Assembly: GCF_004010195.1 (NCBI RefSeq)
Contig: NC_057754.1
Span: 1,028,124 to 1,072,635 of the forward strand
Direction of reading: 5' to 3'
Origin: Chiloscyllium plagiosum
Taxonomy: Eukaryota
Length of the DNA: 44,512 bases
In this document: positions 3,804 to 36,457 of the stretch, one piece after another
How positions within the stretch are numbered: position 1 is the first letter of the stretch
Layout of the letters: every line of letters begins with the position of its first letter
Position numbers and translations under genes: made by a program
The notes under the pieces: generated by a model
What the model was told of the DNA's origin: nothing
Databases searched by the model: none
What the model saw: only the letters and a program-made list of their open reading frames with translations

Positions 3804-3992
3804 CATGATTCGGAGATGCCGGTGTTGGACTGGGGTGTACAAAGTTAAAAATCACACAACACCAGGTTATAGTCCAACAGGTTTAATTGGAAGCACACTA
3901 GCTTCATCTGATGAAGGAGCGTCGCTCCGAAAGCTAGTGTGCTTCCAATTAAACCTTTTGGACTATAACCTGGTGTTGTGTGATTTTTAACT
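3804..3992. mobile_element. Short fold-back PLE-derived insert (family B) with a hammerhead motif in the loop
   Basis: 64-bp arms 3841-3904 / 3931-3994 with 1 mismatch; TSD TTGAGAAATGGA at 3792-3803 and 3993-4004. Confidence 0.8.
3905..3939 (+). ncRNA. Minimal type I hammerhead ribozyme motif (family B)
   Basis: CAU-CUGAUGA-A-GGAGC-guc-GCUCC-GAAA-GC-UA-GUG. Confidence 0.7.
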
Positions 3993-4602: not shown

Positions 4603-5032
4603 AGAGTGGCATGATAGCTCAATGGAAACTACTGCCTCTCAGCGCCGGGGAGCCAGCTTCAAATCCAGCCTTGAGTGACATGTTCTCCCTGTGTCTGCGT
4701 GGGTTTCCTCCAGGTGCTCTGGTTTCCTCCCATAATCCAAAAGCGTGCAGGTTAGGAGGACTAGTTATGCTAAATTTCCGAGATTAGGGTGGTGCTGGAA
4801 AAGCACAGCAGGTCAGGCAGCATCCGAGGAGTAGGAAATTAGACGTTTGGGCAAAAGGACCCTTTTGCCTATGCTAAATTACCTACGCTTTCCAGGGATA
4901 TATAGGCTAGGTGGATTAGTCTTGGGAAATACAGGAATAATGTGCAGATCTGGGTGGGATGCTCTTTGGAGGTTTGGCATGGACTCAACGGGCTGAATGG
5001 CCAGCTTCCACATTTTAGGGATTCTATGATTC
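4603..5032 (+). mobile_element. HE1-like V-SINE interrupted by a family A PLE insert (4777-4869)
   Basis: V-domain tgtgtctgcgtgggtttcctccaggtgctctggtttcctccca; insert flanked by TATGCTAAATT at 4766-4776 and 4870-4880. Confidence 0.8.
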
Positions 5033-6839: not shown

Positions 6840-8320
6840 CCTCCACCCCCGCATTCGACGATTCAATGTCCCTCAGACCCGCCCGAGCAGCCACCTCCGT
6901 TATTTCCTAGCAAGATAGCGGATTCCGGAAAATAAAACAAAGATATCGGAAAAAAAACATGGCCGCCAACTCCTCCTCCTCCTCCTCGACGACGTCGTCT
7001 TCTCCTTCGCTCGGCTGGCAACCCCGCCTTTCCCAGCCGGTGCACCCTGGGAGCTGTAGTTCGGCGGCCCATCCAAACCAACGGCAGCGACCGATCCAGA
7101 AGACTCGCTTTCCCAGCGTCCATCGCCAGGCAGTGACGTGCCGGAGCAGCGACCTTTCACCCGCACTCAGCGGCTTGAGTGGCATCGGCGCTTGCGCAGT
7201 GGCTAACTGGGGGGGCGTGTTTTTTGAGCGCCCCGCTGCCCGCCGGGAGATGTAGTCCCGTGCGGAGGACAGCTGGGGGGGTGGTGGAAACACCATATTC
7301 ATTTTGTTTTCCAGAAAGAAACAAATCGACGGCCTCCAGCTGCGACAACAATAATAAAAAGTGGCGCTGCACACGAAAGGGTGGGAGCCGCGATTATGGA
7401 ATTGGGAGTGTGGGGCTGGGGAAGGTGATAAAATAACTGTCGAAGCCTGAGCAGAGGCCCCGCCCCCCTCCCGGCCACTCCTGCACATGCGCACGCAGCC
7501 GGCGTTGGGCTGCTTCCCGCCTTATAAAGGGGGGGTGGAAGGCGCGGCAAAGCTTTCTTCCCCTTTTTATTTCTTGTCGTTGTCAGACCGTGCGGAGCAG
7601 CCTTCCGGAGCGCCGGGTCCGTTGTCTGCAGAGGAGCTGCGTCCGTTACGTTTTTCCCTTCGCCTCTTCTGTTCTTCTCTTCTCCCCTCCCGACCGTTAG
7701 CCGAGTGGCGGCAGAGGAAAAGGAAAACTGGTCGAAAGCGAGCCGCGGTATTAAAAAATGGTGAGGAGAAAGAGAGGTTTTTATTTGTGGTGTTTATTTT
7801 TTTTTAAAGAAAAAGAGAAATTTCAGCCTTTTGTTCGTCTCGATTCCCCCCCCCCCCCCAAACGCGGCAGGCGACAACCGCGAGGGCGGTTAAAACAATG
7901 TCTCCCTTTTCTTCCGTTTGCAGCGGCTGTTCCCCCCCTTCCCCAGCCCCTTCCCGCCTTTCGCGTGGGGCGGCTGGGGGCTGAGCCGCGAGGGGGTGGC
8001 TTTTTATACCCGAGTGGACCCCTGCCACCGACTGCGAGGAGACCCCGTGGGACGCGATCCCCCCCCAGGTCCAATCAGAACGCCGGGTGTTTAATGTATT
8101 TGGGGGACCCCCCCCTCCCGAGGTGGTGTGGGGCGGCTGCGTTGGTTTGTTTTCAGTGCGGGCGGGCCCTCGCCCCAACTACGCTCCTCCGCCTTCCTTC
8201 TCTCTCCCTTCCCCCCCCCTCCCAACCAACAAACCTTGTGTGTTAAATCTCTAGGTTGACGTCCCCCCATTCCCCCGAGTTTTGCATTGTCTGGAATGGT
8301 CGGTCGGGTTATTATTTTTG
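6840..8320. promoter_or_regulatory. CpG island and cofilin promoter: GC box 7456-7467, NRF1-like TGCACATGCGCA 7482-7493, TATAAA 7523-7528, ZNF143-type motifs 7040-7060 and 7236-7258
   Basis: Sharp rise in CpG density around cofilin exon 1; motifs read directly. Confidence 0.85.
7758..7760 (+). CDS. CFL1: Cofilin exon 1 coding part (ATG only)
   Basis: aaaaaATG|gtgagg in a CpG island about 230 bp downstream of a TATA box; an ATG-only first exon is typical of ADF/cofilin genes. Confidence 0.85.
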
Positions 8321-11300
8321 TTACGTGTATCTTTTTCTTTGCTCCTGGGTCTGTCTGCCCGCCCCACCCTGGTAGAAAGTCCTGTTTTTTTTTATTCTCT
8401 GAATTCCGTTACCTCTGGGCATGTTTAGACTGTCTAGCGATCACTCCAGTGTCCTTGGGCTGATGAGAGTATGCAAAACATTGCTTTTTTTATTTTGCAG
8501 AAAAATGCATGTATTTTAACATCTGTAGCTTTATTCTCTCCCCAGTTTTTTTTTGCAAGATCTGGGCTCAGCCTGCAGAATTGCAGGGCGCCCTCCCGCA
8601 GCATTTAGCTGCACTCGCCTTCCATGCACACATCTTTAAAAAGAGGAAAACGACATTTTGTGACTGCTTCGAGGAGTTGGGTTTCAGTTAGGTGGGGTTT
8701 TGAGCTCACCTCAGTGAGACTTCGACTCTTCTCCTCTTGTGTTAAGAGCTGCCCAGATGTATCTCTGGGAATTTGGCGTAGCCAGTTGGTTTAAAAATGT
8801 GTTGCTGGAAAAGCGCAGCAGGTCAGACAGCATCTAAGGAGAATCGACGTTTCGGGCATAAGCCCTTCTTCAGGAATGGGAGTTCCTGAAGAAGGGCTTA
8901 TGCCCGAAACGTCGATTCTCCTTAGATGCTGTCTGACCTGCTGCGCTTTTCCAGCAACACATTTTTAAGCTCTGATCCCCAGCATCTGCAGTCCTCACTT
9001 TCTCTTAGCCAGTTGGTTCCCTATTCCTACCCTCCCCCAACAAAATAAAGCTCCCAGCTAACGAATTCTGATGCTTGCAGGATCTGTGTTTGGAGACTTT
9101 TGTCATTGGGGATGGTGATGGGACATGATTGACTGACTGGTTTTAAAATGGCTTTGGAGGAGGGGGGGAGGGAGAAAGAGAGAGAGAGGAGTAGTGGATT
9201 GCGCTCATATCTGTGCAGCCTAGTGGATTAGGGTTTGTGGGCACACAATGTGGTAAGGGTGTGGAGGTGAATAGAGGTTAATGTTTTCCTATGGCAGTAT
9301 CTAGGGTGCAGCAGAGTCCCGTGATCATCGGCAGTGCCTTTGATTAAAATTGAGCTCTTTTTGTTTTGAGCATCTGCTCGGTTTCCAGTGTAGCAGGCTG
9401 ACTTGATGTTCCACATCATCCTCCTGGATTTGCTGCCTTTTTTTCGTTTATGTAGAGATGCGTTGAAGAGTTGGCGAGGTATCTACAAATGGGTTCAGTC
9501 TCTGAATTGGCCACTTTTTTTTTGAGAAATTCTGGCCTGAATGTTAGACGAGGGGAGTAGGAGGTGTCTACATGGGGATGGTGAGTAAGCAGGGTATTGG
9601 TAGCTAGAGATTTTTTGTCGTTGCAAGCATTTCCTGTTGTGCGGTACTGGCCTCACCCTTTCCCCGTTGTCAGAGCTGCTTATTTAATGTGGGGCCAGGT
9701 CTGATTAGGCAAGAATCTAACTTTTTAAAACCTTCAGTGGAAATAACCCACATTCACTCTTGTGAAAGTGCTGTTTCCCTTCAGTTCTGCAAAGGCACTT
9801 AGTCACTTGATTAGTTTCTTTTTTTAAAAAAAACAGAAGTTACCTACTGAATACTTTGTAGAGGTTTGACGAGCACAGTCAGGGTGTCTGCACTGTTGTT
9901 GGAAAAATCAAAGTTTGTCTATGAATCGTGAGTTCTGAAATGCAGTGAAATTGAAACTTCAGCTGAAGTGTCAAATACTTTGCCTAATAAGGTCATTCTT
10001 AAAGCACTGAGTTGCCAAGTGAGATGTATTCATTGTTGGGTTTGACCTGCTTGAAGCCAGTTCCCCATTTCCTGGCCTTGCAATCGGTCCCTGTCGCAGT
10101 TTATTTATGCCCATGTCTGGGGTGGGAGAGTGGGCAGTGAAACCTGTTTATCTGCCTTTTAGTCTGTTCTATCTTGGAAAGAGTGCAACTGGCTAAAGTG
10201 GACAAGAATTATCAAGCTGTGCTCAGTTATTCCATTTAGTTGGCAATTTTCCTCAGTGGAGGGCTCTCAATGGGCATCCATCTGGCACCCAAAACTGCTT
10301 TCCTTGAATTCAGTCTGAGTTCCAAACCTCAACTCTCCTTTGATCTTCCATTGATTTGTGTGGAATCCATTAATTGGTTGTTTTTCTGTTGAGGAAGAAC
10401 TCTATTTTGCAGCCTCTTGTGGATTTAGGGGAGAATACCTAATAAATCTGCCCTCCACATCCTGTACCAAAGAAAATGAATCAAGCCATCCACTCTTCCT
10501 TCATTGCTGAAATTATCTATAAATCTCATCTGCACCATCTCCAGCGTGATCACAGCCTTCCTGTAATGATATATGACAATCCGTGTCTGTACTGGTGAAT
10601 GCAATAACATGCAAGAAATTTCCACCTGTCTTCCTGCCTCCCTTTGGCTGATCCCAGCTGTGAGCTGAATCAATTTGTTCAATCATGTTTCCACTTGTTG
10701 ATAGAAGTTCCAAACCTCCAGCTTGCATCCAGGAGAGTGCTGCATTCCTGAGCTGCTGCTGTGCCTGCGGGGGGAAAGTGAACGTGTATGGTCTGCTGAA
10801 GCTGAAAACAAGACTACACCAGCTTGTAGTCCCAACAGGTGGTTGTGAAGCAGGACCGTAAGAGACAGAAGCTGGGACAGTGATGGAGTGGAGTGGTGGG
10901 GTGGGAAGGAAGATGAAAAAGTCAAAAGGGGTAGTGTTGAGTTGGAATGTTGGATCTGGGATAAGGTTGGGGAGAGGGGAGATTGAATCGGTGTGATTGG
11001 AGGGTCCCAAGGCGGAAGCTGAGGTGTTCTTCCTCCCAGATGTCGAGTGACTACGACCTGTAGTGGAGGAGGTCCAGGGGTTGCATATCCTTGACAGAGT
11101 GGGAGGTGGGAGTTAGTGTTCACCAGTTTCCTAATTTCCCCCCCACTAACTTTTCCCAGATCCAACCTTCCAACTCTGTACTGCCCTCTTGAACTGTCCT
11201 ATCTGTCCATCTTCCTTCCCACCTATCAGCTCCACCCTCCTCAGATGCTACCTGACTGGCTGTGCTCTTTCAGCACCATACACTTATTCTTGTCATGCCT

Positions 11301-14300
11301 CTCCTTTCTGGATACCTGAAGTGGGTCCCCATTTAGTAGTGGTGCTGGGTCCACATCAGGATGGGGATGCTGCAGTGATAGAGGCAATGGTTGCCATTAA
11401 TCCCTAATTGCCTTCATGGTGAGCTGCCTCCTTGGAACTACTGCTGCTGAGCCACCCACAATGTTGTTAGAGGGGGAGTTGCTGAATTCTGACCCAGTCA
11501 ATGAATGCAGTGACCAAGACATAAGCAAGATAAGAGAAGCCTCTGCATAGGCAAAATGAGCTGCTAATTGCCTTGTTTTGAAACAGAATCTCAAAAGACA
11601 TATTCTCTTGGTGGTGTAGGGGGAAGAGACCAATAATCTGGTCCCATTTGCCAGCATATGGCCCATATCCCCCTCAACCCTTCCTATTCATGTACCCTAA
11701 CCCTTGTCCTTGTTTTGAAATAGAATGGTTCCTGGAGTTTGAAAGATGCCAAATGTAACCTCCTAATGAGGGAAAGACCAAATTGGGAGCTAAAGACCTG
11801 TTCTAGCATCAGTTATTTGCTAAAATGTATGACCAAAGTTGTGATGATGCTGGGGAGAATTCAGCATGGATTTATGAAAGGCAAGGATGTGCAGTATTCT
11901 CTTGTGGATTTATTTAAATGGCCAGATAACGGGATCCAGTGAGTGCTGGGTGTTTGGATTTTCAGAAAGTATTCGATTAGTATCAAGATTTTGATGAACA
12001 AAACTCATTCACATGAGAATGGGGGAATATACAGACTAGAATTGAAAGCTGTTTAACTGACAAACAGTGGGGAGAAACCAGTCATTAGGTTTGAGGCGAA
12101 GTCTGAACGCTTAGGCCTTGGCTACTTTGTTTCTCAATGATTGAGGAAAGGCAGGCACAGAGTATTCCAGGATGGTGAAGTTTCTGAGGAGCACCGTGTT
12201 TGATCAACTTGGTCCAAGTGGATTTTGCAATGGCTGCTTTAAAAACAAGAGTTGTGGGATCCAGAGGAATGTAACAAGTCTGATAGGAAAGTGCTCCCCC
12301 CAGGTCGTGGTTGGTGTTTGTGACTGAGAAGGTGTTTCCATTGGGATTCTGCAGGGCCTCCCTGCTTTGTGGTGTTAACCTAAATATACAGGGTACAATC
12401 AAGTTTACAAAACAAAAATGTTGGCATGTGCTTGACAGTGAGGAGAGAAGTCTGCCTTTATTGCAAAGACATGGGGGATAAAATAGGCAAGTGCACTTTG
12501 CCTTTATTTAAGGAGGCTATAATCCTTACCGTTCAGAGAAACTCACCAGGCTGAAATGGTTGGGCTGATGCTTTCAGCATTTAGAATGAAATATTGCGGA
12601 GGGTCTGTCACAGGATAATTGCTGAGAGGATGCTGCCTTTTAAGGGGTTCTTCTATTCACTTTCAGTGATCCTTTCTGCCAGTTTTGGTATCTGCATCAC
12701 CATTTTCTGTAGCAGATAGCTGGCTCAGCCTGTTAATCATTCCAGTTATCATTATCCTGTTCAGAGATGCTGGGTTAGTGAAGCTTTTTACCTCTGCTAA
12801 CACATGGTGGTATTAGTAAATCAGCATTCAATTAGAGGCTGGTTCCTAATAGCCTTTTCAGGAACCACATCTACCATCCCTGCCTGGTCTGGCCTACGTG
12901 TGACTCCAGACCCAAAGTAGTGTGCACTACTTTACCGTCTTCTGAAATGCCCAAACGAGACAGTGGGTTCAGAGGCAACTGGGGATAGGCAGCAAGTGCT
13001 GGGTAGCCCAGCCAGTGACAGTTGGGTGATCTGAAACCTGAGGAAATGCATGCACTTGTCTTTCCAGGCATCCGGTGTAGCAGTCTCCGATGAAGTCGTC
13101 TCCGTTTTCCAGAACATGAAAGTACGCAAATCATGCACCCTGGAGGAGACCAAGGGGAGGAAGAAGGCTGTCTTCCTTACATTGAATGACAAGAAAGAGA
13201 ACATAGTTGTGGATAAGGACAGGCAGATCACAGTTGGAGATTGCTTAGGAGGAGATGTTTCTGACCCTCTTGAAACTCTTGTTAAAATGCTTCCGCTTAA
13301 AGATTGCTGTTATATCCTTTATGATGCCTCCTTCGAGACCAAAGAAACAAAGAAGGAAGAGATAATTTTCATACATTGGTGAGTTCTAATTCATTCTTCT
13401 CTTATAAAGAGAGCCTGGACTATTGTAGGAATTTGAGGTGACCTGAAAGAATTTTATGAAATGAGGGGTATTCCTTAGGGTGGGGCATTTCAAGACTGGG
13501 GGCACATTTTTAAGGTGAGGAGAGGTTTTAAAAAGATGAGGCAAATTTTTAATACAGGCTGGTTTGTGTGTGGAATTAGCTGAGGAAATGGATGTGGGTA
13601 CAGTTACAACATTCCAAAGATATTTGGAGAAGTACAGAACAATATTGGTTATCCAAACATCGGTTATCTGAATTTCAGATTATTTGAACAAGATCTCAGG
13701 TCCTCTATAGCTTCCTTTGTTTACGATCAGTTATCTGAGCCAAATACTTCCCTGCCTGTCTTTTTGGGATAATCGATATTCTGTACATGGGAAAGGTTGA
13801 GGGATATGGGCCAGGAGCAGGCAGGTGGGACTAGTTTAGTTTGGGATTATGTTCACCAGCTTTTCAGCAATTCAAAAGCAACTCCTACTCCTAGGGAGAC
13901 GATGACATGGAACTTGCTCCCATGGGAAGTGGTTGAGGTGAATAATGTGGATAAATTTGAGGTCTGAATATCATGAGGGAGGGTGGAATGTGTTCAGTCT
14001 GGTGCCCTCCTCCATACAACTCTGGTATTAACAATGACTGCACATGTGTGCCCTGGTATGAAAAGTGGGAGGAAGGATAGTGCAGGATCCTTTTTTATTA
14101 TTAAAGACATTCACCATTATTATCTTGATTTTTCCAACAGGGCTCCTGATGATGCACCTATTAATCGCAAAATGATTTTTGCTAGCTCCAAGGAGGCTTT
14201 GAGGAAAAAGCTGTGTGGTATGGCTTTCTGCCTTGCAGAGATTTTAACATGCTGTCCTCTAATATTGAAGTCTTGAGGTCTGTGTCTGTCATTATTCTCA

Positions 14301-18069: not shown

Positions 18070-21000
18070 CTGGAAACAAAAAAAAAAGTATGAAAGTTAC
18101 TTCAAAATAAAAAAAAAAATGAAGTTTCAACAAATAAAGTTCCCCCAACAGCTTGAATTTATTCAGTGCATTCACAGTAAAACACCTTCAAAAAGACACT
18201 CCACAGGAGCTACTGGAATAATGTGCATGAGACACAGGTTAGGCAGTGGAATGAACAGGCTACTAATGGTGCAGCAACAATCCAAGGGTTGATAGAGGTT
18301 CCACAGATAGGAAGGGCTAAAAGGAAATTAAACATCCAGCAACCACACAAGGCCAACAAGCCCGAGAGATAGGCGCTAGCTCTCTGAATGGAGCAGAATA
18401 AACTTCATACCACATTCCACAAATTATTCATGTTGAGGCCAGTTTAATTTTGTTCTGGAATGTTTTAGAGTCAGATTCCAGCCCTTTAGGAAAACGTGTT
18501 GCATTTCATTGCCTTATGTATACAGTGAGACACTACTCAATAGTTTGAGCAGAGATTGGAAGGGGTCCAGTCTCAAGTCACCTCAATCATGTACCAACAT
18601 CCAATCCTCACCTACCTTTGCGTGTTTCAGCTCCAGCTCTGTCATCTCAATCATGTTCTTCCGAAAGGCAGAGACCCTGCGAATTTTAAAGTCGGAGAGT
18701 TCTATGGGCAGCAGGGAAAACAAATTGCGGCGGGGAAGGAAGGAAAGAAAAACAAAGTAAAACGGCCTTGTGAATAAAGTTACCCAGGACATGCACATTT
18801 CTGTAAATACTTTAACTGCGTCAGCCTCCTACAAAACCAGGGGGGGGGGGGGGAAGAAGGAAGAATAAAAAAAGGAAGAGGAAACAAAAAAAAAATCTTT
18901 ACCCCAGCTCAGGACATGTAGGAAACACAGCTACTTCCCACACAGAGACAGACTGACTGTTTTAAGGTGACAAGGAGGGATAGATCTCTTTCATAGAATC
19001 CCTACAGTGTGGAAACAGGCCCTTCGGCCCAACCTGTCCACACCAACCCTCAGACCCATTCCCCTACTCTATATTTACCCCTGACTAATGCACCTAACAT
19101 ACACATCCCAAACACGATGGGCAATTTAGCATGGTCAATTCACCTGACCTGCACAAACTTTGGATTATGGGAGGAAACCGGAGCACCAGGAGGAAACCCA
19201 TGCAGACACGGGGGAGAACGTGCGACAGACAGACAGACACCCGAGGATGGAATTGAACCCAGGGCCCTGGCGCTGTGAGGCAGCAGTGCTAACAACTAAG
19301 CCACCCATACCATCTCCTGACAGCCTGGCTGCCCCTCAGCACTGACCCTCATGACGGCTCAGGTTTTAAATTTGACTCTTGATTTTATGGTGGAGGGCTC
19401 AAGCAGCACCAAGGAGTGATGGGACAATATTGTCAGTCAGCCTGGCAAGAGATGTGACAGCATAGCATGGGCCCGACATCACTTGGTAACCATGGAAACA
19501 GTGAAAAAATCAACATCATACAGGGAAGTACTGGAGAAACTCAGCATAGACCGACAGAATTCAATGGGCTGGTAGGAGGCACTGGCCAGAGTAGCATTAA
19601 TGTCTGGGCTGTTAATCCAGAGACCTAGGTCACGTGCTGGGAACAGGCTCAAATCCTGCCACAGTAGATGGTGGGATTCAGATTCAGTATTAAAAAGGAG
19701 TTAGGGTTAGGCTGTCCTTAACTAGTCTAGCCTATAGGTGGCTGCAGACCCACAGCCATGTGACTGACTGACTGCTCCCAGGGATGGCCAGCAATGCCCT
19801 CATACTATCAATTAGAAAGGAAGTCACACAGGACTCAACGTCAGGTCGGTTTCTCACACAGGTGCTGCCAGACCCAGCTTTCTCCAGCACTCAGTTTTTG
19901 CTTCATGTTTCCAGTGTCTGCAGGATTGTGCCTTTCAGAATCAGATGTACAGCATGGAAACAGAGACCCTTGGGTCCAAACCTGTTCATGCTGACCAGAT
20001 ATCCCAATCTAATCTAGTCCCATTTGCCAGCACTTGGCCCATATCCTCCAAACCCTTCCTATTTATATACCCATCCAAATGCCTCTTAAATGTTGTATTG
20101 TACCAGCCTCCACCACTTCCTCTGGCAGCTCATTCCATACACGTACCACCCTCTGTGAAAGTTGCCCCTTGGGTCCCTCAGATCTTTCCCCTCTCACCCT
20201 AAACCTATGTCCTCTAGTTCTGGACTCCCCCCACCCCAGGGAAAAGACTGTCTACTTATCCTATCCATGCCCCTCCTGATTTTATAAGCTTAAGATCACC
20301 CCCTAGCCTCCGACGCTCCGGGGAAAACAGCCCCAGCCTGTTCAGCTTCTCCTTGTAGCTGAAACCCTCCAACCCTAGCAATATCCTTGTAAATCTTTTC
20401 TGAACCCTTTCATGTTTCACAACATCTTTCCAATAGGAAGGAGACCAGAATTGCACGCAATATTCCAACAGTGGCCTAACCAATGTCCTGTACAGCCGCA
20501 ACATGACCTCCCAACTCCTGTACTCAATACTCTGACCAATGTGAAAGCGCACGGATGAAGGTCCTATTTGAGGAACGGGTCAGGCTGCAGACAATGAATG
20601 GACGTGTGGGGTGGGGTGGGGGGTTTGGAGGTGGAGAGAAGGAATGTCGAGCCCTTTACCTTGCTTGGCTGATTCAGAGAGCTTTTCAAATTTTTGGCAG
20701 CAGCGTTGCTGATTAGTCTCAGCGTGTTTCACATCCTTGTTCTTCATGCGGGCCCGGTCCAGGGCTTTGTTGGCATTTTCATAATCCGACAGAGAGCGAG
20801 CTCTCCGGTACAATAGGTCCTGGGCAAGAAATTCACACAAACCTCACGTCATCCCCAAAGACTGACTCAAATCGAATAAAATGGGATCCTAAAGGCTTGG
20901 AGATTTTTGGTGGCGGTGGTGGGGATTGTTTGTCAGAGTTCCAGAGCACAAAGCAAGGTTTCAAATAAAAAAAAAAAGGAATTCTCAAATCTCCAGGCCT

Positions 21001-24000
21001 CCGGCAACTGGAGACACTGCCCCAGTGGTGGGGTGATGGGAATCAGTGGATGCTTAGGAGGCCGGGATTGGAGGGAGAGTCAGAGCTGCTGGGTTGTTGG
21101 GGCTGGAAGGGGTGACAGAGTTAGGGAGGGGTGTTACATGCAGGGGGCTAGAGGACGTGACAGGGGTAGGGAGGAATATGGGGTGCTGAGGGGCTGACAG
21201 AGACTGGGAGGGATGTACCTATGTATCTGCTGCCCCTTGTCCTTCTGGATGGAAGTGGCCATGGGTTTGGAAGATGCTGCCTGAGGATCTTTGGGGAGTT
21301 TCTGCAGTGTATCTTGTAGCTGGCACACACTGCTGCTACTGAGCGTCGGTGGGGAGGGAGTAGGTGTTTGTGGATGCGGTGCCAATCCAGGGCTGCCTTG
21401 TCCCTGGATGGTGTCGAGCTTCTTGTGTTGTTGGAGCTGCCCCCATCCAGGGGCAAGTGGGGAGTATCCCCTCACCCTCCCGAGTTGTGGGACAGGCTTT
21501 GGGGAGTCAGGTCGTGAGTTGCTCACAGGATTCCCAGCCTCTGGCCTGCTTTTGTAGCCACAATATTCATATGGGAAGCTTAATTCGATATCCCTAGGAC
21601 ACTGATATGGGCTGCCTCCGCAATAGTGGTGCTCAGGGAGAGAGGTGATACATATTGGTACAGACAGACAACAGAAGAAACTGGACACAACAAAAAGCAC
21701 TATTTTAAATCAGGAGTGTAGGGGCTGAGGGCCTGGGCGCATGGACGTCTGCCAAAGGTGGCAGGGGGAATACAGTCGGCGGTTAAAGCGAACTATACCC
21801 CGGGTAGGGACGGACACACACACACGGGAGAGAGGAATGTGTGGTGGAGACAGGTTGAACTCAGACAGAGGAGCATCGGCCGGTTATGTATATAGAAACT
21901 ACACCCTGGGTTTAAAAGAAAAGAGAATGGCACCAAGTTGTGATATGCAGAGAGCTAGAACACATGGGATGGGCTGAGTGGCCTTTTTTTTCCCTGCACT
22001 GTAGCAATTTGGTGCTGCTGTGTGGATATGGAATTGTTTTAGCAGGTGGACTAGGCATGAGGGAGAAGGGTTGACTGATAACAAGTAGGAGGGAGATTTG
22101 GTAGATGAAGGTAGGGTAGAGAAATGCCCCAGGTCAGGGTCAGCCCCTCCAGGAGGGAAGAGGGAGAGCCCCCACTCCAGGAAAGTGGCTGCACACCTCC
22201 CCCACCCCCTACAATTCTCAATCGCGTGGGAGACTTAAAGTTAAAAAAAAAACTGAAGTAAATGCTCTTTTAACATGAAGTTTTAAAACCACGTACAGAG
22301 GAACCTCAATTATCCGGCATTCAATGAATTGAACTGCGGATCATCCAGACAAGATCGCAAGGTCCCGACGCATGGCTAACTGTTACGTGGTGTTTAATTA
22401 ACCAAAATCTTCCCTACCCCTTGGATAAATCGGGTTTCCTCTGTACTTGCCTTTGCTGCTTGTGAATCCCTCATGTAATATCTTAACAAGTCAGAAAGTT
22501 TCAAGTCTTCATCAGATGCCACACGCCCTTCCAGTTTCTACAGAGAGAAAACAAAGGAATTAACTGGCTGAGTATTCTGAGAGATACAAGTTGCCATTGG
22601 CCAAACAAACAGCAAAAACTCATTCTTCTTACCCGAAGTTTCTCAAAAAGTTCTGCAAGTTTCAGAAAGTTCCTGCAACGAGAGAGAAAAGGGAGAGGAC
22701 AAGCAGAAAGTGAATGGGTTAGGTAATTTTGTGGTTTATTGTAGGAGAGACAGACAGCAGATCCAGCTCACTGCCTGCTCCAGAGACACAGCACTGAGCC
22801 AGTCACCTATCTGTCCTCAGAGGTGTGTGAATGTACAGCTAAAGCTACAAACAGCCCTAGTACTCCCCACCGAGCACGGCTGGACTCTCTTCCGAGGCCT
22901 GGGGGGAGGGGTGGAAGTGAGCATCTCTCTGATCACCACAGCATTGAGAAAGACTTCTGGCTTTAACAAAACTGGATGCATTCCAACTCAACAGAAGGTT
23001 AGATACAGAGTGAAACTGCTCCCTCTAGCGTACAGGGAATGTTAAACACTGGCTTCAGTACAATATGGAGAGACACCCCCCCCACCCCACCCCACTTCTC
23101 TTCACCAAATGTGGCAGCAAGATCTTGTAAAGACAGGTACAACTTTGCCATCAGGTGGATGTAGATATATTCCTCCTCCTCCCCTCCCCCCCCACTCCCT
23201 CAAGATGGCTCCTCCAGCAGCAGCTTGCTCCCTCAGCACCAACACCCACCCCACCGCCCCCTGACAGCACCTGGAAGAGGACTAATTCGCTCTGGGAGGC
23301 AGACAGGCAAGCAGGGGAGGCAATGGCCTGCTGGTATTATCACTGGCCTGTCAATCCAGAGAGCCAGGTAATGTCCTGGGGACTCAGGTTCGAGTGCCAC
23401 CATGGCAGGCGGTGGCATTTGGATTCAGTGAATAAAATCTGGAATCAAGAGGCTAGTGATGACCATGGTTGATTGTTGGAAAAAACCCCTTCAGAGAAGG
23501 AAACTGCCATCTTTACCTGGTCTGGGCCTACTGTGACTCCAGGCCCACAGCCCTCTGGGATGAGCAATAAATGGATGTCGGTTTGCTCACGGAGCTGGAA
23601 GGTTTGGTTTCAGACGTTGAGTCACCATACTGGGTAACATCAGTGAGCTTCCAGGTGAAGCACTAGTGGGAATGGCCTGCTTTCTGTTTGTGTGTCACCA
23701 AGGAAACCCAAACAGAGCAGACCATCCCACCAGTGCTTCATCCGGAGGCTCACTGATGTTACCCTAGTAGGGTGATGAAACCAAACCTTCCAGCTCAGCG
23801 AGCAAACCAACATCCAGAACCTCAAGCTGAGCTACAAACCTTCTCAAAACTCACTATGAGCAATAAATGCTGGCCTGGCCAGTGACACTCATCCCGCAAA
23901 TAAACAAAATATAGGTCACAGACAAGTACAGCTGGTCTCACCACTTAGTGCGCCAATTTAGAACAAAAAAAAATGTCCTACTTGCTAAGTGGGTTGGTGT

Positions 24001-27000
24001 CCAATGTTCCCAAACCAGATAAAGCAGAGGAGATTGGAATGTAATCTTCAGCGACATCTGTGGAGAGATGAGAGGGAGCAGACAAGCCAGGGTGAGACAC
24101 AAACAGGCCCTTAGCTCCCATTGCCAGATACAGTTCAGAGGTTGTAAAGATCATAGTGCGAGTGAGCCACAGAACATAGTCTTCCCCCAGTCTGCCACTC
24201 ACTGTTCACAAATAACCTTCAGAGCAACACTGAGTCTCAGTTCTACACGAGTGTACAGCACCCTACCAGTGTGACCACAAGACAGGGATAAGGCAGACCC
24301 TGCTTGATTGGCACCACACCCACTCCCTCCCCCCTCTGACGCTCAGTAGCAGCAGTGTGTACCATCTACAAGTTGCACTGTAGAAACTCAGAAGACCCTC
24401 AGGCAGCACCTTCCAAACCTAATTGATATTAGTGTCAAGCTTTTTTGTGGGGGAACGGGGGTGTTGCCTGATTAATCTAGAAGTGAAAATCTAGAACGCA
24501 CACCCCTACCCTCACCACCTCCTACCCCTAACCACCCTGTTGCAGAAGCTGTAGTGGGACAGGCTCAGAGGATCTGACAAATGGCCTCCTGTATAACAAG
24601 GAAATAAAGAGAAAAAAAAACACTCTTTCCAAGAGGGAGTCTGGAGTGAGGGGAGGTCAGAGCCCACAGATGATAAAACAGCTGAGGGAGGGCTGTTAGT
24701 GTACACGCGCAGCTTGGCGTTATAATACCAGAAAGTATTCAGGACAGCAGAGATCCTGGGAGTGAGTGAGCGAGCGAATGAGTGAGTGACTCCAGAGAAC
24801 CCACTTTTGTGTGAGCGGGTCTTTCTATCCGCCTTCAGCGTCGCATCCTTGACCCGATTGTGATACTCGATGAGGAAGGTCCTCTCGTGCTCAAAGAACT
24901 CGTCCACTTCCTGCAGGAGAAAGAGGATAAACGTTAGCGCGGTCTGTCAGAGCATTCAGGAAAAACTAGATCATCCCCTCAGGTACTCGAATGAACACAG
25001 GGGAGACCATAGGGGGCAAGGACTAAATCGCCAGGATAATGGGCCATGTGTCCTGGGAGTGTTTGATGGGATAAAACAGTGTAGTACTCTGTACCTGTTT
25101 GATGGGAGTGAAAAGAGAAAAATGTAAAAGGAAATTTAAACATTTTTGTTTTCGTTTCTCATTTCCAGCATCAGCAGTTATTTCCAGTTTTTTGTTCAAG
25201 GGAATTTACTTTCAGTTTACAAAGAGGGGAGAGGGAGAGTTATTGTGTTCAACATTTACAGATACTCTCTACAAGAAGTGATATATTAACTGAGCGGAGT
25301 TGCTGAGTTGGTTTCTCCAATATAAAAAGGAAAGATTGTGACAAGGTCAGATGTACCTTCATGCCAGAGATGCCAGTTATTATTGCTTCATCAGCGGTCT
25401 TCACAATGTTCTTTAGAAAACCACCCAGGATCTCCTTCCTATTCTTACCACGGACGCTCAGCTGTGGTTTAAACAAAGATTAAAAAAAAAAAAATCAGAG
25501 TTCAGGTTTTCCAGCTCATTTCCCCATCTCAGGGCACCCCAAAGTTTCACATCCAACAGAGGACTCTTTGGAGAGCACTCCCTGTTGTAAACTAGCAAAG
25601 CAGACACACACACCAATGGGAGTGAACCAGATCAGCTGGTTTTATTTGGTGGATGTCAGTTTCCTTCCCTAAAGGACATTAGTGAACTTGATGGGCTTTC
25701 CCCCAACCAAAACAATGAGATGCTTAATTCCAGACTTATTTTTAAAGAAAAAAAAAGATAATCCAAACTCCATCTTCCATAGCAGGATTCAAACTTGGGT
25801 CCCCAGACTGTTATCAGGGGATCTGGATCAACAGTCCATCGATTACACCATTGGACCGTTACTGGTCAGTGTGATGTTGGATCAAGGATTCCTACCCCAA
25901 GCTCAGTGGTGCTTACTCATTGCTGAGCCCACATCACCCTGAGCAGAGCTGTGCTACTTCAGTGCTGACCCTCATGACCTTGGAGGAGACAGAGCTTCCT
26001 AGAATCAGAATCCCTCATGTGGAAGCAGGCCATTTGGCCCATCAAGTCCATAACAACCGCCCCCCTCTACACTGCAACTTAGCATGGCTCATTCACCTAA
26101 CCTGCACATCTCTGTATTGTGGGAGGAAATCCACACAGACATGGGGGGGAAGAATGTGCAGAGTTTGCACACTCCGCAAGAGGGTGGAATTGAACCTGGG
26201 TCCCTGGCACTGTGAGGCAGCAGTGTTAACCACTGAGCATCCTCCTGGTTGGCACGATGCCTGATTGGAGGGGCTATGGGTAAAAAAGACAGGCAGAACA
26301 ATCCTGGGGAGTGGGAGGGAAAGGTGTACACCGCAGTGAGGGAACAGTTCTGTAAACCTGGGTTCGATGACAGCAGCAACGATGGAGGAATTAGTGAGGG
26401 AGATGTTGACCCCCCCCCACTCCCCAGCCAGGAAGCAGTTAGACCTACCTCCTGATCATACTCCAGAAATACGTAGAAATTGTGGTCCCCCCTTAGCTGC
26501 GGGTGAGCAGCAAGACGTTGCAGGAAGACCTCGTGCATGGCTACCGTCTTTTTAAAGATGGCCAGGTACTCCCTGTGAGGAGACAGGCAGAGAGAAAAAG
26601 ACAATAATTAGACAGAGTGCACGACAGAGCGAGGAAATAAAGGGTTTCGGGAGGAAAGAAAAAAAAAAGTCTTTAGCCAGAGAGCAGGGTGGAGGCTGAA
26701 CTCACTCACACGAAAGAGAATGGTCGAGGTGAATTGTGTCGGTAAAATAAGGCAAAAACTCAGCAAACTCACTAGGGCCATTGGGATGGAACGAGTGTGA
26801 GGGGAGGTTTGGGGAGATGATCAAGCAGGTGGAAGGTGGCAGCACGTGGGGAGTAAGAACAGCCGCTGCTGGGCTGAAGGGCCTCCTGCAAGAGGACATA
26901 GAATTGCTCCAGCACAGAAAGAGGCCATTCAGCTGACAGAATCTGTACTGACCCTCCAGTGGGCATCCTACCCAGATCCAGCCTTTCACCTTACCTGCAG

Positions 27001-30000
27001 ATCGCCACGTTATCATGACAAAATGGCCCTAGCCTGCGTATTCCTAGACTCTCAGGAATTCCCAAGAGGAGCATATTCGCATTTGGATATTTAGATGTGG
27101 GAAGGCCCCAAAGTTGGTTAGGCCACTTTTGGAATATTGTGTGCAATTCTGGTCTCCCTCTTATTGGAAAGATGTTGTGAAACTTGAAAGGATTCAGAAA
27201 AAATTTACAAAGATGTTGCCAGGATTGGAGGATCTGAGCTACAGGGAGAGGCTGAACAGGCTGGGGCTGTTTTCCCTGGAGCGTTGGAGGCTGAGGGGTG
27301 ACCTTATAGAGGTTTACAAAATTATGAGGGACATGGATAGGATAAATAGACAAAGTCTTTTCCCTGGGGTTGGGGAGTCCAGAACTAGAGGGCATAGGTT
27401 TGGGGAGAGAGGGGAAAAATATAAAAAGGGACCCAAGGGGCAACTTTTTTCCCCCAGAGGGTGGTACGTGTATGGAATGAGCTGCCAGAGGAAGTGGTGG
27501 AGGCTGGTACAATTGCAACATTTAAGAGGCATTTGGATGGGTATATGAATAGGAAGGGTTTGGAGGGATATGGGCCGGGTGCTGGCAGGTGGGACTAGAT
27601 TGGGTTGGGATACCTGGTCGGCATGGACAGGTTGGACCGAAGGGTCTGTTTCCATGCTGTACATCTCTAATGACTCCAATAGGTTAACACAAGAGGCTGC
27701 GGACAGGTAGGGGCCAGGGTGCGAGTGAGAGTCTATGAGAGGGTCAGCCCCAGAGAGTCACCCCCACCCCAGTCACTTACGATTCCAGCTCTTGCTTCAT
27801 CTTAGCAAACTCCTCCCGCGTCATGGACCCATCCCCCTCCCCAAGTTTCTGCAGTTTCTCCCGCGACGCGTCAAAGTTTGGTTTTGGAGGGGCAGGAGGA
27901 ATCTGGGGGGGGAAAAAAAAAACAAAACAATGTTTCAGTTGTTCAGGTGACAGCAAAGGAGACGCTGTCTTTCAGTGCATGGCGACTACTGGAAGGTGGC
28001 AGAATTCTCTGTCCATTGTACACAGGGCGATCCCAACTTCCTTCCAGCAGTGTGCCAATCACCCAGACAGACACTGCTCACGAAAGGCATTAGCCCCAGA
28101 GACAACCCCTCCATCCATAGACTGCCCCACTTCACTACCATAGGGTATAGGCAGCACTGGCCGGGTCAGCATTTGTTGCCTTTTCCCAACGGCCCAGAGG
28201 GCATTAAAGAGTTATCCACATAGCTGGGGGTCTGGAGACATGTACAGGCCACACCAGGTAAAGATGTCAGATATCCTTCCTTGAAGGACATTAGTGACCC
28301 AGATGGTTTCCACAACATGTGATGATGGGCTCATGGTCACTTAACTCCTCAAGGCAGGATTTATTTTCTGCCGTCACAGCATTCAAACTCCAGGTCTCTG
28401 GATTAACATCTACTGAAAATACCATTAGGCCGACACCTCACCCTACAGTGGGAGCTTTCCTCTGTATCCAACGCTGCGCTGTCCCTGTCCTAGCAGGGAG
28501 GGAGTGTAGAGGGAGCTTTCCTCTGTATCTAACCCTGTGCTGTCCCTGTCCTGGGAGTGTTTGATGGGGGACAGTGTAGAGGGAGCTTTACTCTGTATCT
28601 AACCCTGTCCTGGGATCTGTTGGATGTTAGACAGTGTAGGGGGAAGCTTTACTCTGTATCTAATCCAGTGCAGTCCCTGTCCTGGCAGTGGGACAGCGTA
28701 GATTAGATTCGATTCCCTACAGCATGGAAACAGGCCCTTCGGCCCAACAAGTCCACACCGACCCTCCGGAGTAACCCATCTAGACCCATTTCCCGCTGAC
28801 TAATGCACCTAATACTATGGGACCATTTAGCATGACCAATTCACCTAACCTGCACATCTTTGGACTGTGGGAGGAAACCGGAGCACCCGGAGGAAACCCA
28901 CGCAGACATGGGGAGAACGTGCAAACTTCACAAAGACACCCAAGGCTGGAATCGAACCTGGGACCCTGGTGCTGAGAGACAGCAGGGCTAACCACTGAGC
29001 TGCCTTGCCGTGTAAAAGGAAGCTTTACTCAGTATCCAACACTGTGCTGTCCCCTCACTGGGAACAGCACATACAGAGAACCAACAACATTTGAGCCCGC
29101 TGTATCTGGTGCAAGCTCCTGGCAGTCGCTCACTTACTATAATCCCAGCGTAATCCTCATTTTCCAAATACGCGTCATGAAGCCATATGAACTCTTCATG
29201 TTGCCGTACCACTGAGAACTCCGGCTGCTTGAAGTGAGCAAGATTCGTCTGAGACGGAGAGAGGGAGGAGAGAAATTAGTGCTGCCAAATGTGACACAAA
29301 GCAAGATCCCACATGCAGCAACATGGGAATGACCCTAAACATGTTGGTGGAGAAATGACATTGGCTCCAGAGAGAGAACCCTCCCCCACCCAGTGTGAGG
29401 CTCCAGTAATGGAGCCTGAAGGTGTCAATCTGTATCAAACTTTACCCAAGGCCAGAGGGCTCGGCCCTCAGACACTGTGGGGACCTGGGCCACCTACCCA
29501 GTCTTCCCCTTTGTACCTACCTTGGTGTGGACTGTAAATTTCACTTTGTCTCTCTCACTGACTGCATCAGAGATCTCCACTTGCAGTGAGGAATCTGTCT
29601 GTAGATCCACCGACATGGTCCTTGACTGTACAGAACAAAAACACACCGGAGACCCACATGGTCATTCTAAAAGATGACAGCAGACCTAAACAATCCTGGT
29701 CTTTCTCAGTGTATAATTTCAATTGCATCACACTAGAAACTTTTGCTATAAATTGGGTCTTACAATCTTATACTCCACAACCACCTGATGAAGGAGCAGC
29801 AGTCCGAAAGCTAGTGTTCCAAATAAATCTGTTGGACTATAACCTGGTATATAGTGTAGTGTAATTTTTAAAGGAGAAAAAGTGAGGGCTGCAGATGCTG
29901 GAGATCAGAGCTGAAAATATATGTTGCTGGAAAAGCGCAGCAGGTCAGGCAGCATCCAAGGAGCAGGAGACTCGACGTTTCTGGCGTAAGCCTGAAGGGC

Positions 30001-33000
30001 TCATGCCCAATACATCGGTTCTCCTGCTCCTTGGATGCTGCCTGACCTGCTGCGCCTTTCCAGCAACCCATTTCCAGCTAGTAGACACACACAGACAATG
30101 TATCTAACCCCATTCTATCCCTGTCCTGGGAGTGTTTCATTGGTGGGGGTACAGTGTAGAGTGAGCTTTACTCTGGATCGAACCCACCCTACATGAATAG
30201 CCGAGGTATGGAGGGATTATGGGAGTCAGCAGGAGGCAGCTGGGACTAGTTTAGTTTGGGGTTTAAATGGTCAGCATGGACTGGTTGGGCCGAAGGGTCT
30301 GTTTAATGTGCTGTGTGACTGTACACCTGGTGACTGCCGCCCAGGGGTCAAACAGGGTGCGGATGCGGTTAGGAAGGCATTGAGGTGACACTCCTGTCTG
30401 ACCAACACCCCCAACTCTCACGTGCAGATATTCAGGCACACAGTCCACCCCAGCTCACACATTTTTGCCACACCTACCCCCTCCCTTTCACACCCCTCCC
30501 CCCCAGTAGTTAAAAAAAAAAAAAGGAGAGTGATGTGGATTACCAGAGAACCTCTAGAGTGCACAAACCAAAAAAAACAAACATTCCCAGTCAGTGTCCT
30601 TTATCCTCACTGAACACAACCTCATCAATACTCTCTTCCGAAGATACAGAAGCTTAAAACACCAACAGGTTCAGGAACAGCTTCTTCCCTGCTGTTATCA
30701 GGCTGCTGAACCCCCAGACCTCTCTCTAACGTTGATCTCCCTCACCCACCCTGTACAGCTGTAACCCTGTAGGTTTCACTTTGTCCAAGTGCCCCACCAT
30801 CCATATGCCCTTATCTGCCTGTACTGCTCACTTTTCACTGTACACAGGACTACAGTAAATCTCTGCTCTCTCATTCACCAACCCACAGGTGAGACTGTAA
30901 TCACGGGCCAAACTCTAATGGCTTCCACAGATTGATGTAGTTAATCCTGTCCCAGGACATGGGCGGCTGCTGAGGTGGAGGATTTGTTGCCCGCCCCCAA
31001 TTGCCCCTCCACTATTTGGGAGGGCAGTCAAGAGGCAACCACATTGCTGCGACTCCATGCTCATGAAAGCCAGACTGGCTAATCTGTCCTCCCTAAAAAA
31101 AGGAAAAAAGGGCCCTGGGGACCCTGGTTAAAAACCAATAAAGGTTGTTATAATCACCATCACTGGCTTTCCATTCCAAATCTGACTGTTAAGATGTTCA
31201 CCATTACATTCCACCAACTGCCTGTAGCAGGATTTGAACTCTATATTCCTGTTAAACGGTGACGGGGCTTCCATGTTGGCCTGGTGGCTATTCACTGTAG
31301 GTCCTTTGCAGGGATGGGGTGTAGATGAGTCACAACATCCATCTGGCACTTGACATTTTGCCCCAAGAGTGTGCCAAGTCTCAGATGAACCAGTAGGGGT
31401 AAAACTAAAATAAAATGTGCCTCAGCGTTGAGAGAGAGAGAAGGAAAACAAAAGTTGAGCAGCTGTGGGCTCTACATACAACATCTTTGCTCTGATCAAA
31501 TCTCTGCTCACTTCATTGTTCTACTCTGTCAATAGAAGTTGTGATGTTTTGGTTTTTCCATCACAGAACATTAGCAGTTTATAGAGTCATTAGAGATGTA
31601 CAGCATGGAAACAGACCCTTCGGTCCAACCCGTCCATGCTGACCCAGATATCCCAACCCAATCTAGTCCCACCTGCCAGCACCCGGCCCATATCCCTCCA
31701 AACCCTTCCTATTCGTATACCCATCCAAATGCCTCTTAAATGTTGCAATTGTACCAGCCTCCACTTCCTCTGGCAGCTCATTCCATACACGTACCACCCT
31801 CTGCGTGAAAACATTGCCCCTTAGGTCCCTTTCCCCTCTCACCCTGAACCTATCCCCTTCAGTTCTGGACTCCCCAATCCCAGGGAAAAGACTTTGTCTA
31901 TTTTTCTTATCCATGATATATTTCCAAGTCAGGATGGGGGGGGGGGGGGCAAAAAATGGGGGGAGCTCCCAAACCCTTGTCCCTCTAGACTGGAGTGGCC
32001 GTGGGTTTGAAAGGTGCTGTCTGAGGACCCTTGTTGAATCTCCGCGGTACACCCTGCAGAAGGCGCACATTGCCACCACCAAACGTAGTGGGGGAGGGAG
32101 ATGACTTTATAAAATAATTAAATGTACATCACTGGTTGCCCGAACATTTATTGCCCATTCCTATTTGCCCCTCCAGAAGTAGGGGATTAATGATATGCCT
32201 TTTTTGATCTGCTGCAGTCCATGGGGTGTACAGACACCAGAGGGTTATAAGGGCAAGAGGTGCGGGATTTCAACTGTGAAAGAATAGCGATATATTTCCA
32301 AGTCAGGATGGGGAGTGGCTTGGAGGGAGGCTTGCAGGGGATGGGGCTCCCATGTATAGAATGGGATTGTTTTATATTTAGAACCCCTACAGTGTGGGAA
32401 CAGGCCCTTCGAACCAACTAATCCACACGAACCTTCCGAAGAATACCCCCGCCCCCCCAATCATTATCTATTACTCAATTTCCTGATGAAGGGCTTTTGC
32501 CCGAAACGTCGATTTTACTGTTCCTCGGATGCTGCCTGAACTGCTGTGCTCTTCCAGCACCACTAATCCAGAATCTATTACTCTATATTTATCCTGGAAG
32601 CAAACCCAGGTCCCTGACGCTGAGGCAACACTGCTGCCCTTGTCCTTCTAGATGGAAGTGGTCATGGGTTTGGAAACTGACATCTGAGGAGCCTCAGCAT
32701 ATTGCATCTCTCTCTAATGTAGGGCAGCTACCTAGGTACATCAGTCTTTTAGGTGAGTGCAGACCAAGAACTGGGTTACTCACAACCTATGGTTCCAGAT
32801 TCCGCAAATTAACCCCTACAACATCCCTCCCTGTCCCCCACATCTTTTTTTAAAAAAGGCTGTCAATTGTTCAGTCTCTTGAGCTAAAGAACAACAAAAA
32901 AGGAAAAGAAATTCTAATTAACTCAACACTTAGGATCTGAAAAATGTGGGAAAGGAAAGGAGACAGAGAGAAAAGCAGCAAAAACCAAAAACAGCATTTT

Positions 33001-34269: not shown

Positions 34270-34845
34270 TCCCGACGAGGGGCGCGACCCCTCTTGTACC
34301 AACGCACGCCTCGTCGGCAGCCCGCCGTACCCCGCTCGGATTGGCCCTTACCCCGCGACGGCCACCGCCCTCGGTTCCGGTTGGTCCGGCACCGCGTCCA
34401 TCAGACAAATCCCACCCACTCCTTAAAGCGGACCCGCGACCAACGGAGATCAGCCGAAAGCGTTTGCTTTTTCTTTCCTTTTACTTTCGCCCCCCGAATG
34501 TCTTCCTGATTTTTGTTAAAAAAAAGAGTAAGCGGTTTCATTTACTTTCACGCTACTTCGGTACTTGAGACGTCGGGGCAGAGGGGGGGGGAAGGTAGAG
34601 GAGTAAGATCATATGATATCTGCTTTTATGTATCTCCTCAATAAACAGGTTGCTGAGGAGCAGCTCACAGATAAAAGAAGAACATTAGTTCATTTTCTCA
34701 GTTGGGGGACCTGGAGTTTGTTTTGCTTCTGACGGAGAGAAGTTTCCAGATTGAGCCCGCGGCTCCTTTAAGAGCGTCCGGTCACATGACCTTCGGGGAA
34801 AGGGCGGGAGATCGACAGGAGCTTCGCGGAGCCGGAAGTGCAACT
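34270..34845 (-). promoter_or_regulatory. SNX32 CpG-rich promoter and 5' region: GGTCACATGACC 34780-34791, GC box 34802-34808, ETS/GABPA CCGGAAGTG 34832-34840
   Basis: CpG-rich stretch immediately upstream of the SNX32 start codon; motifs read directly. Confidence 0.7.
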
Positions 34846-34910
34846 AATGTCATTGACCCTTATTCTTCCATCAATAACCCAACCCCTCATTAAATACCCC
34901 TCAATCTCCC

Positions 34911-36140
34911 TTAAATACCCTATATCCCCATTAAATACCCTATATCCCCATTAAATACCCTATATCCCCATTAAATACCCTATATCCCCATTAAATACCC
35001 TATATCCCCATTAAATACCCTATATCCCCATTAAATACCCTATATCCCCATTAAATACCCTATATCCCCATTAAATACCCTATATCCCCATTAAATACCC
35101 TATATCCCCATTAAATACCCTATATCCCCATTAAATACCCTATATCCCCATTAAATACCCTATATCCCCATTAAATACCCTATATCCCCATTAAATACCC
35201 TATATCCCCATTAAATACCCTATATCCCCATTAAATACCCTATATCCCCATTAAATACCCTATATCCCCATTAAATACCCTATATCCCCATTAAATACCC
35301 TATATCCCCATTAAATACCCTATATCCCCATTAAATACCCTATATCCCCATTAAATACCCTATATCCCCATTAAATACCCTATATCCCCATTAAATACCC
35401 TATATCCCCATTAAATACCCTATATCCCCATTAAATACCCTATATCCCCATTAAATACCCTATATCCCCATTAAATACCCTATATCCCCATTAAATACCC
35501 TATATCCCCATTAAATACCCTATATCCCCATTAAATACCCTATATCCCCATTAAATACCCTATATCCCCATTAAATACCCTATATCCCCATTAAATACCC
35601 TATATCCCCATTAAATACCCTATATCCCCATTAAATACCCTATATCCCCATTAAATACCCTATATCCCCATCAAATATCCTTTATCCCCATTAAATACCC
35701 TATATCCCCATTAAATACCCTAAATCCCCATTAAATACCCTAAACCCTCATCAAATTCCCTAAACCCTCATCAAATATCCTTTATCCCCATTAAATACCC
35801 TATATCCCCATCAAATACCCTATATCCCCATTAAATACCCTATATCCCCATCAAATTCCCTATATCCCCATTAAATACCCTATATCCCCATTAAATTCCC
35901 TAAACCCTCATCAAATACCCTATATCCCCATCAAATTCCCTAAATCCCCATTAAATACCCTATATCCCCATTAAATTTCCTAAACCCTCATCAAATACCC
36001 TATATCCCCATCAAATTCCCTAAACCCCCATCAAATACCCTATATCATCATCAAATTCCCTAAACCCTCATCAAATACCCTATATCCTCATCAAATTCCC
36101 TAAACCCTCATCAAATACCCTATATCCTCATCAAATGCCC
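34911..36140. repeat. 20-bp tandem satellite TTAAATACCCTATATCCCCA: 38 perfect copies (34911-35670), then variant units
   Basis: Read directly; degenerate continuation at about 36340-36450, 37725-38310 and 39640-40105. Confidence 0.97.
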
Positions 36141-36457
36141 CAAACATTTTCACACAGAGCTGCCAGAGAAAAGTACAGTTATCGCATTTAAAATATATTT
36201 GGATGGGTATCTGAGTAGGAAAAGTTTAGAGGGATATGGGCCAAATACAGGCAAATCGGATTAGTTTAGTTTGGGAAACTAGGTTGGCATGGACGAGTTG
36301 GACCGAAGGGTCTGTTTCCATGATGTTTGACTCTATAAGCCCCTATCAAATACTTTAAATCCCCATCAAACACGCAATGTCACCATCAAATACCTTAAAC
36401 CCTCATCAAACACCCAATATCACCATCAAATATCCTAAACCCGCATTAAATAGAATA

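Follow-up and report, generated by a model that had tools for sequence, protein, structure and literature searches.

A perfect 86-bp hairpin in cofilin intron 1 of Chiloscyllium plagiosum, very probably an inverted stub of a Penelope-like retroelement

Results

The cofilin locus and the architecture of its hairpin

The window analysed here is the whole stretch of 44,512 nt from contig NC_057754.1 of Chiloscyllium plagiosum and contains a plus-strand cofilin gene. Its exon 2 matches the Cofilin_ADF family (Pfam PF00241) and, among known structures, the chains of cofilin-2 and cofilin-1 with E-values of about 5e-33 to 2e-32. Splicing across the joint 7760/13068 is supported by 49 raw RNA reads (run X21) as well as by contigs of runs X1 and X17. 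The original prediction placed a long hairpin in cofilin intron 1, and this is borne out by the exon 2 match and the spliced RNA reads. The hairpin lies about 1 kb inside this well-expressed gene and near a CpG island, with an observed/expected CpG ratio of 0.5–0.7. The following features are referred to throughout:

7758 to 7760, plus strand: start codon of cofilin, closing exon 1, from the sequence and the splice joint in RNA
7761 to 13067, plus strand: cofilin intron 1 (GT..AG), host of the insertion, skipped in RNA reads and contigs
8779 to 8791, plus strand: left copy of the target-site duplication (TSD), 13 bp, its final base common with the arm
8791 to 8876, minus strand: left arm, an inverted pLTR copy without tail, exact reverse complement of 8883–8968
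8846 to 8873, minus strand: mirror hammerhead motif, the copy in the left arm
8877 to 8882, minus strand: loop, continuing the left arm into upstream pLTR sequence minus one base, as compared with long copy L088
8883 to 8968, plus strand: right arm, a sense pLTR copy beginning at the common 5′ end point of the family, about 92 nt before the arm end
8886 to 8913, plus strand: minimal type I hammerhead with CUGAAGA at 8886–8892, a bulged A, a 4-bp stem II at 8894–8905 and GAAA at 8906–8909
8918 to 8932, plus strand: where the right arm carries the shared changes, namely a 6-nt loss at a short direct repeat, A8924 and T8932; the left arm has the mirror positions of the two bases at 8835 and 8827
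8969 to 9005, plus strand: Penelope "tail" of 37 nt, on the right arm only, equal to the subfamily majority except for one common variant and the last base
9006 to 9018, plus strand: right copy of the TSD, 13-bp repeat
13068 to 13378, plus strand: cofilin exon 2 (PF00241, E=1.7e-9; PDB cofilin-1/2)

The two 86-bp arms are exact reverse complements of each other around a 6-nt loop. They are bounded by the 13-bp direct repeat, and the 37 unpaired bases of the tail separate the right arm from the right repeat copy. Arms, loop and duplication were confirmed in the assembled sequence as they had been described, and BLAST comparison with the copies at 29872 and 40312 showed the same 6-nt deletion (GCTCCT) and substitutions in both arms. 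The RNA fold of the hairpin has a z-score of −23.3, with none of 200 shuffles equally stable. An Rfam scan gave only sub-threshold matches to miRNA precursors and SRP, which were rejected as chance matches caused by the long stem, and no match to a hammerhead family. A search for look-alike stretches in other genomes returned none.

Three further features of the window were recorded. Upstream of cofilin exon 1, positions 7000–8500 form a promoter region of the CpG-island type that includes a TATA-like box at 7523, and a long tandem array with a 20-bp unit occupies about 34750–36400. On the minus strand, at about 18500–29300, lie exons of a gene resembling a sorting nexin, in tail-to-tail arrangement with cofilin; its PX (E=0.0012) and Vps5 (E=0.059) matches both failed the cut-off. 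The human genes CFL1 and CFL2 have SNX32 and SNX6 as neighbours.

Identity of the repeat

The hairpin is very probably the hammerhead-bearing end (pLTR) of a GIY-YIG Penelope-like retroelement, present as a head-to-head stub. Right arm and tail have many relatives in the same genome, and the longer ones continue upstream into conserved pLTR sequence beside or downstream of pieces of a GIY-YIG ORF. The GIY-YIG domain in the adjoining ORF was found with a Pfam E-value of 1e-4, at the cut-off, and the corresponding protein piece has 93,240 first-look candidates in the genome. A C-x4-C-x2-C motif precedes GIY-YIG, a C-x2-C motif lies within it and the CCHH cysteines are present (L009/L332). A linker of the CX2-5CxxC type is described for Neptune and Nematis (PMC8557442), and linker and CCHH together agree with the Neptune/Nematis type, a tentative placement by motif. 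In the two long copies examined, the inner parts, where a telomerase-like RT domain would be expected, are N gaps.

The insertion form described for EN+ Penelope-like elements consists of a 5′-truncated copy, an adjacent inverted copy and a tail of 30–40 bp at one end (PMC8557442), and the same form with a TSD is described for Pen2a_Av (PMC3846280). At the cofilin locus we find an inverted, 5′-truncated copy adjacent to the 5′ end, one 37-nt tail and the 13-bp TSD.

The motif made up of the subfamily arm end and tail has 3,565 exact matches, the first 100 of which (97 loci on contig C1) served as the sister sample. An inverted arm occurs at 53 of these 100 matches, and at 48 of the 97 loci it follows a short spacer (≤15 nt), with junctions varying between loci. 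Most sister hairpins are flanked by duplications of 13–17 bp, and N gaps hold long copies at 12 of the 100 matches. Genome-wide, 2,161 sites fit a hairpin-centre pattern with inner arms of 14 bp and a loop of up to 6. Because of these many like centres, the differing junctions and the flanking duplications, we regard the hairpin as a common by-product of the insertion process.

Among the first 50 of the 2,161 centre sites, 12 have perfect stems of at least 86 bp; 9 of these 12 belong to younger subfamilies and none to the subfamily of the cofilin hairpin, which is itself represented by only 1 of the 50. The idea that perfection is rare in the genome was therefore rejected. The shape of the cofilin hairpin is the ordinary Penelope insertion form and perfect long stems are common, but arms that share rare changes are unusual in its own subfamily.

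Many arms of L069–L165 start 88–93 nt before the arm end, immediately ahead of the hammerhead instead of at its cleavage position. The window contains other, more diverged copies of this Penelope end at 4789–4864, 29875–30073, 32480–32563 and 40316–40412, that at 29875–30073 being an older asymmetric hairpin.

A three-state marker dinucleotide allowed the two arms of one insertion to be compared. The states agree in 21 of 29 C1 hairpins, compared with 31% at random (5 hairpins with nearby indels were set aside). The arms carry different states in L075, L127 and six further hairpins, in two cases at both bases, and single-base discordances can be later mutations. These arm states point to a mixture of one-template and two-template events. 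The counts would fit priming on both target strands from two start sites bounding the tail (PMC11167929), the inner ends then being joined or folded back.

The hammerhead motifs

The motif at 8886–8913 comprises the CUGANGA and GAAA boxes, stem II, a UH site and a rudimentary palindromic stem III, which is loop-less; the cut is predicted after C8913. In the predicted fold of the full insert, each base of the hammerhead core is paired with a probability >0.99, and adopting the ribozyme fold would cost 47.7 kcal/mol. The proposed sequestration of the hammerhead by the duplex agrees with this predicted burial of the core. Its proposed consequence, the prevention of pre-mRNA cleavage, does not follow as well, the minimal type being expected to be idle as a monomer. 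Single minimal hammerheads of Penelope-like elements (PLEs) gave no detectable cleavage in vitro and dimers gave little (PMC4209133), so that no lock is needed, and the cofilin hammerhead is probably idle with the duplex adding little. The ribozyme of the anole element cut only with its protein and was dispensable for insertion in vitro (PMC11167929).

The window also contains another repeat family with a hammerhead, at 3879–3956, 29785–29813 and 42233–42261; in the copy at 3879 the motif is enclosed by perfect arms of 26 bp.

Read support and RNA data

The left junction, from the flank into the arm up to 8814, is present in contigs of the DNA runs X10 and X11, the X11 contig showing two flank differences to the assembly. 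The right junction is present in an X1 contig (8979–9444), and X5, which bears another organism label, leaves the flanks uncovered, an absence that is uninformative. Among the contigs of X10, X11, X5 and X1 at 98% likeness there was no single-copy piece across the loop or the deletion site of either arm, since sister copies swamp the arms. As no listed piece spans these sites, the exact identity of the arms is a property of the assembly.

In pre-mRNA the arms are predicted to zip into an 86-bp duplex, which would be an A-to-I editing substrate like any intronic inverted repeat pair. The Dicer products and DNA cruciform that had also been proposed are candidate outcomes. The raw RNA run X21 has zero depth in the unique intron flanks, and no read of X22 was placed. 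Because these flanks lack X21 depth, the A>G rows over the arms in X21 are assigned to variants of sister copies. An X1 RNA contig follows the intron to 8792 and continues with 29 unplaced letters, while the DNA contigs match on to 8814 (window 8792–8821). As a lead only, this break could reflect dense A-to-I editing of the A-run at 8793, skipping of the stem by reverse transcriptase, which is a known artefact class (PMC8240250), or another allele. The accessible portion of the open literature searched contained no report of arm-to-arm recopying, or of editing in sharks, for such stubs.

Changes shared by the two arms

The deletion had been taken as private to this hairpin. The 6-nt loss occurs at about 75 other places in the genome (43 others in one search and 33 others in a second, with one locus in both), so that it was rejected as a private feature on its own, and only the full combination of changes is unique. 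Most substitutions relative to 29872 and 40312 are subfamily markers. Three exact patterns found no donor with the full haplotype elsewhere in the assembly; requiring exact matches, they would overlook a donor that had since mutated within the searched sequence.

All 43 other deletion loci of the one search and 30 of the 33 of the second were examined. In 19 of 21 other hairpins with a partner covering the site the loss is one-armed, and in two (L197 and L199) it is both-armed; this script count includes the doubtful partners L032 and L202 and misses L188 and L194, one-armed by eye, and the ratio stands. The C>T change together with the subfamily arm end was matched exactly at 53 places. Thirty of these were examined; their backgrounds are mixed, and the change is one-armed in 10 of 10 hairpins among them.

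The subfamily of the cofilin hairpin is an older one. None of its 31 hairpins with at least 55 overlapping sites is perfect (95% upper bound 9%), 17 hairpins with a shorter overlap having been dropped. Their arms differ at 95 of 2,014 non-CpG sites and at 45 of 217 CpG sites. About 5.3 differences would be expected over the cofilin arm, and the probability of observing none is about 0.005, or 0.025 without CpG sites, under a Poisson model with one age assumed and for a locus that had been singled out for its perfection among thousands of hairpins. The two to three shared changes equal the load expected on one arm of such an age. All 8 CpG pairs of the hairpin are intact, and tail and TSD show no ageing, only about one change being expected there. 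The cofilin hairpin is thus an outlier in its own subfamily, with identical arms that share rare changes.

Discussion

As a single locus, the hairpin is transposon debris in an intron and matters little, being a stub of an already described kind. It had been argued that one arm was recopied from the other or that both came from one variant donor, and this logic survives the genome-wide control, the sharing of such changes being rare in the own subfamily. We tentatively favour, at slightly below an even chance, a probably inert Penelope stub whose arms were made identical after insertion by recopying of one arm from the other. The enzyme of the element would have primed both cut target strands from two start sites bounding the tail, and the inner ends of the two copies would have been joined. 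The insertion would then have aged like its subfamily, with one arm gaining the 6-nt slip and one or two substitutions, before quasi-palindrome correction, a template switch in the course of replication or repair, overwrote the other arm. The hairpin would be spliced out with the intron, and the explanation requires no function. In yeast, inverted repeats are perfected by template switching, which rises with high transcription (PMC3820800).

Several observations count against recopying, among them the unaged tail and duplication, the N gaps in which a donor could be hidden and, at L199, arms that look more like the product of a decayed donor. Two of three other perfect hairpins tested share markers of a donor lineage (2,168 and 167 matches; L256 and L220), and the proximity of the CpG island lowers the decay to be expected at this locus. 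General arm conversion in the subfamily was rejected, as shared CpG decay shows no excess (2 cases seen, 2.5 expected by chance); with decay at chance level, recopying is not general in the subfamily.

The next explanation, somewhat less probable, is a late insertion, in which a decayed copy of the older subfamily was mobilised recently and both arms came from one RNA, or the second arm from the first cDNA by fold-back. It would account for the intact tail, duplication and 8 CpG pairs, and agrees with the usual concordance of arms on donor markers, with the donor-lineage changes of L256 and L220 and with the perfect arms in younger subfamilies; self-priming has been proposed for inverted pLTRs (PMC3846280). 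L209 has the deletion and the C>T change, though it differs at other sites. At L199 (G000:C16:33920958-33923981), 257-bp inverted arms about 370 bp apart have shared deletions and CpG decay, with 6 differing sites; it looks like a decayed copy mobilised again, and fits a decayed donor. L238 (G000:C1:31161565-31162065), a perfect 86-bp hairpin of a young subfamily, carries in both arms an 8-nt loss found nowhere else in the assembly. Such a loss would result from a slip copied at insertion, and either this or later recopying explains it. However, an old decayed donor should persist in the genome, whereas the three exact searches found none; as long copies often lie in N gaps, the donor could be missing from the assembly. 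Moreover, the left junction was recovered from two DNA runs, of which one has flank alleles of its own, so that the insertion is not confined to the assembled haplotype; nor does fold-back by itself account for a perfect copy in so old a subfamily.

An unlikely alternative is a collapse during assembly or polishing, by which a real insertion with changes in one arm had its other arm filled from the first. With 101,977 contigs the assembly is fragmented, gaps occur in it at this Penelope family, the shared changes are one-armed nearly everywhere else, the diagnostic sites have no listed read or contig at single-copy depth, and the RNA contig ceases to match at 8792. The same assembly nevertheless retains arm differences in 31 of 31 subfamily hairpins and in 30 of 42 full two-arm hairpins, the arm is shorter than a usual read, and the first 23 bases of the left arm are matched by DNA contigs. 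Very improbable is selection for the hairpin, whether it silences a harmful hammerhead in cofilin pre-mRNA or yields a regulatory edited or small RNA: the predicted cost of about 48 kcal/mol for freeing the core, the position in a well-expressed gene and the lack of any arm-breaking change would suit it, but thousands of like hairpins arise as a by-product and decay freely, the minimal hammerhead type gave no detectable cleavage singly (PMC4209133), the anole one needed the element protein (PMC11167929), and nothing shows conservation in other species.

If the recopying that we favour is true, the locus shows that quasi-palindrome correction can act on an arm of 86 bp in a gene of a vertebrate, and thousands of dated members of the family would be available as test cases, also for asking directly whether transcription drives the process. 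A wider and more doubtful proposal is that arm-to-arm homogenisation takes place in the germ line at stubs within highly transcribed genes, the cofilin copy being a caught example. The thousands of datable hairpins would then serve as a natural vertebrate assay for template switching linked to transcription, with mixed arm haplotypes recording fold-back versus two separate cDNAs. The arm-haplotype counts also bear on the open question of how Penelope inverted ends are formed.

Comparison with known systems

Inverted Alu pairs are edited by ADAR, and in L1 twin priming two primings give an inversion. The cofilin stub resembles the former in its long intronic retroelement duplex, its own A-to-I editing being predicted. 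It resembles the latter in an inversion that would result from two primings, while the cofilin arms cover the same part of the element and belong to one insertion.

Non-LTR retrozymes (bioRxiv 10.64898/2026.07.22.740005) are likewise ORF-less, PLE-derived and equipped with a type I hammerhead. They form tandem arrays with at least two ribozymes in the same sense, whereas the cofilin stub is a single inverted pair and falls outside this definition. With the minimal PLE hammerhead (PMC4209133) the cofilin motif shares an intact core, a bulged base before stem II, a loop-less palindromic stem III and a short stem I. A tandem hammerhead dimer is impossible from the cofilin insertion because its partner copy is antisense.

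In quasi-palindrome template switching (PMC3820800, PMC8604942) an imperfect repeat is likewise perfected by arm copying, favoured by transcription; there the process was shown in yeast, while here it is inferred from one locus with an 86-bp arm. For PAc, a Poseidon element of the anole, RT is described as starting at two sites, one at each boundary of the tail, and as extending both target strands; this would give one tailed and one tail-less arm as at the cofilin locus. PAc belongs to a different clade by its linker motif, and the available part of that report does not treat the formation of inverted junctions (PMC11167929).

From the EN+ Penelope units (PMC8557442; Pen2a_Av, PMC3846280) the cofilin copy differs in containing no ORF sequence, in arms of only 86 bp and in rare changes shared by both arms without a donor found. 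It agrees with these units in the head-to-head pLTR pair, the single tail, the TSD and the link to an ORF with a C-terminal GIY-YIG domain.
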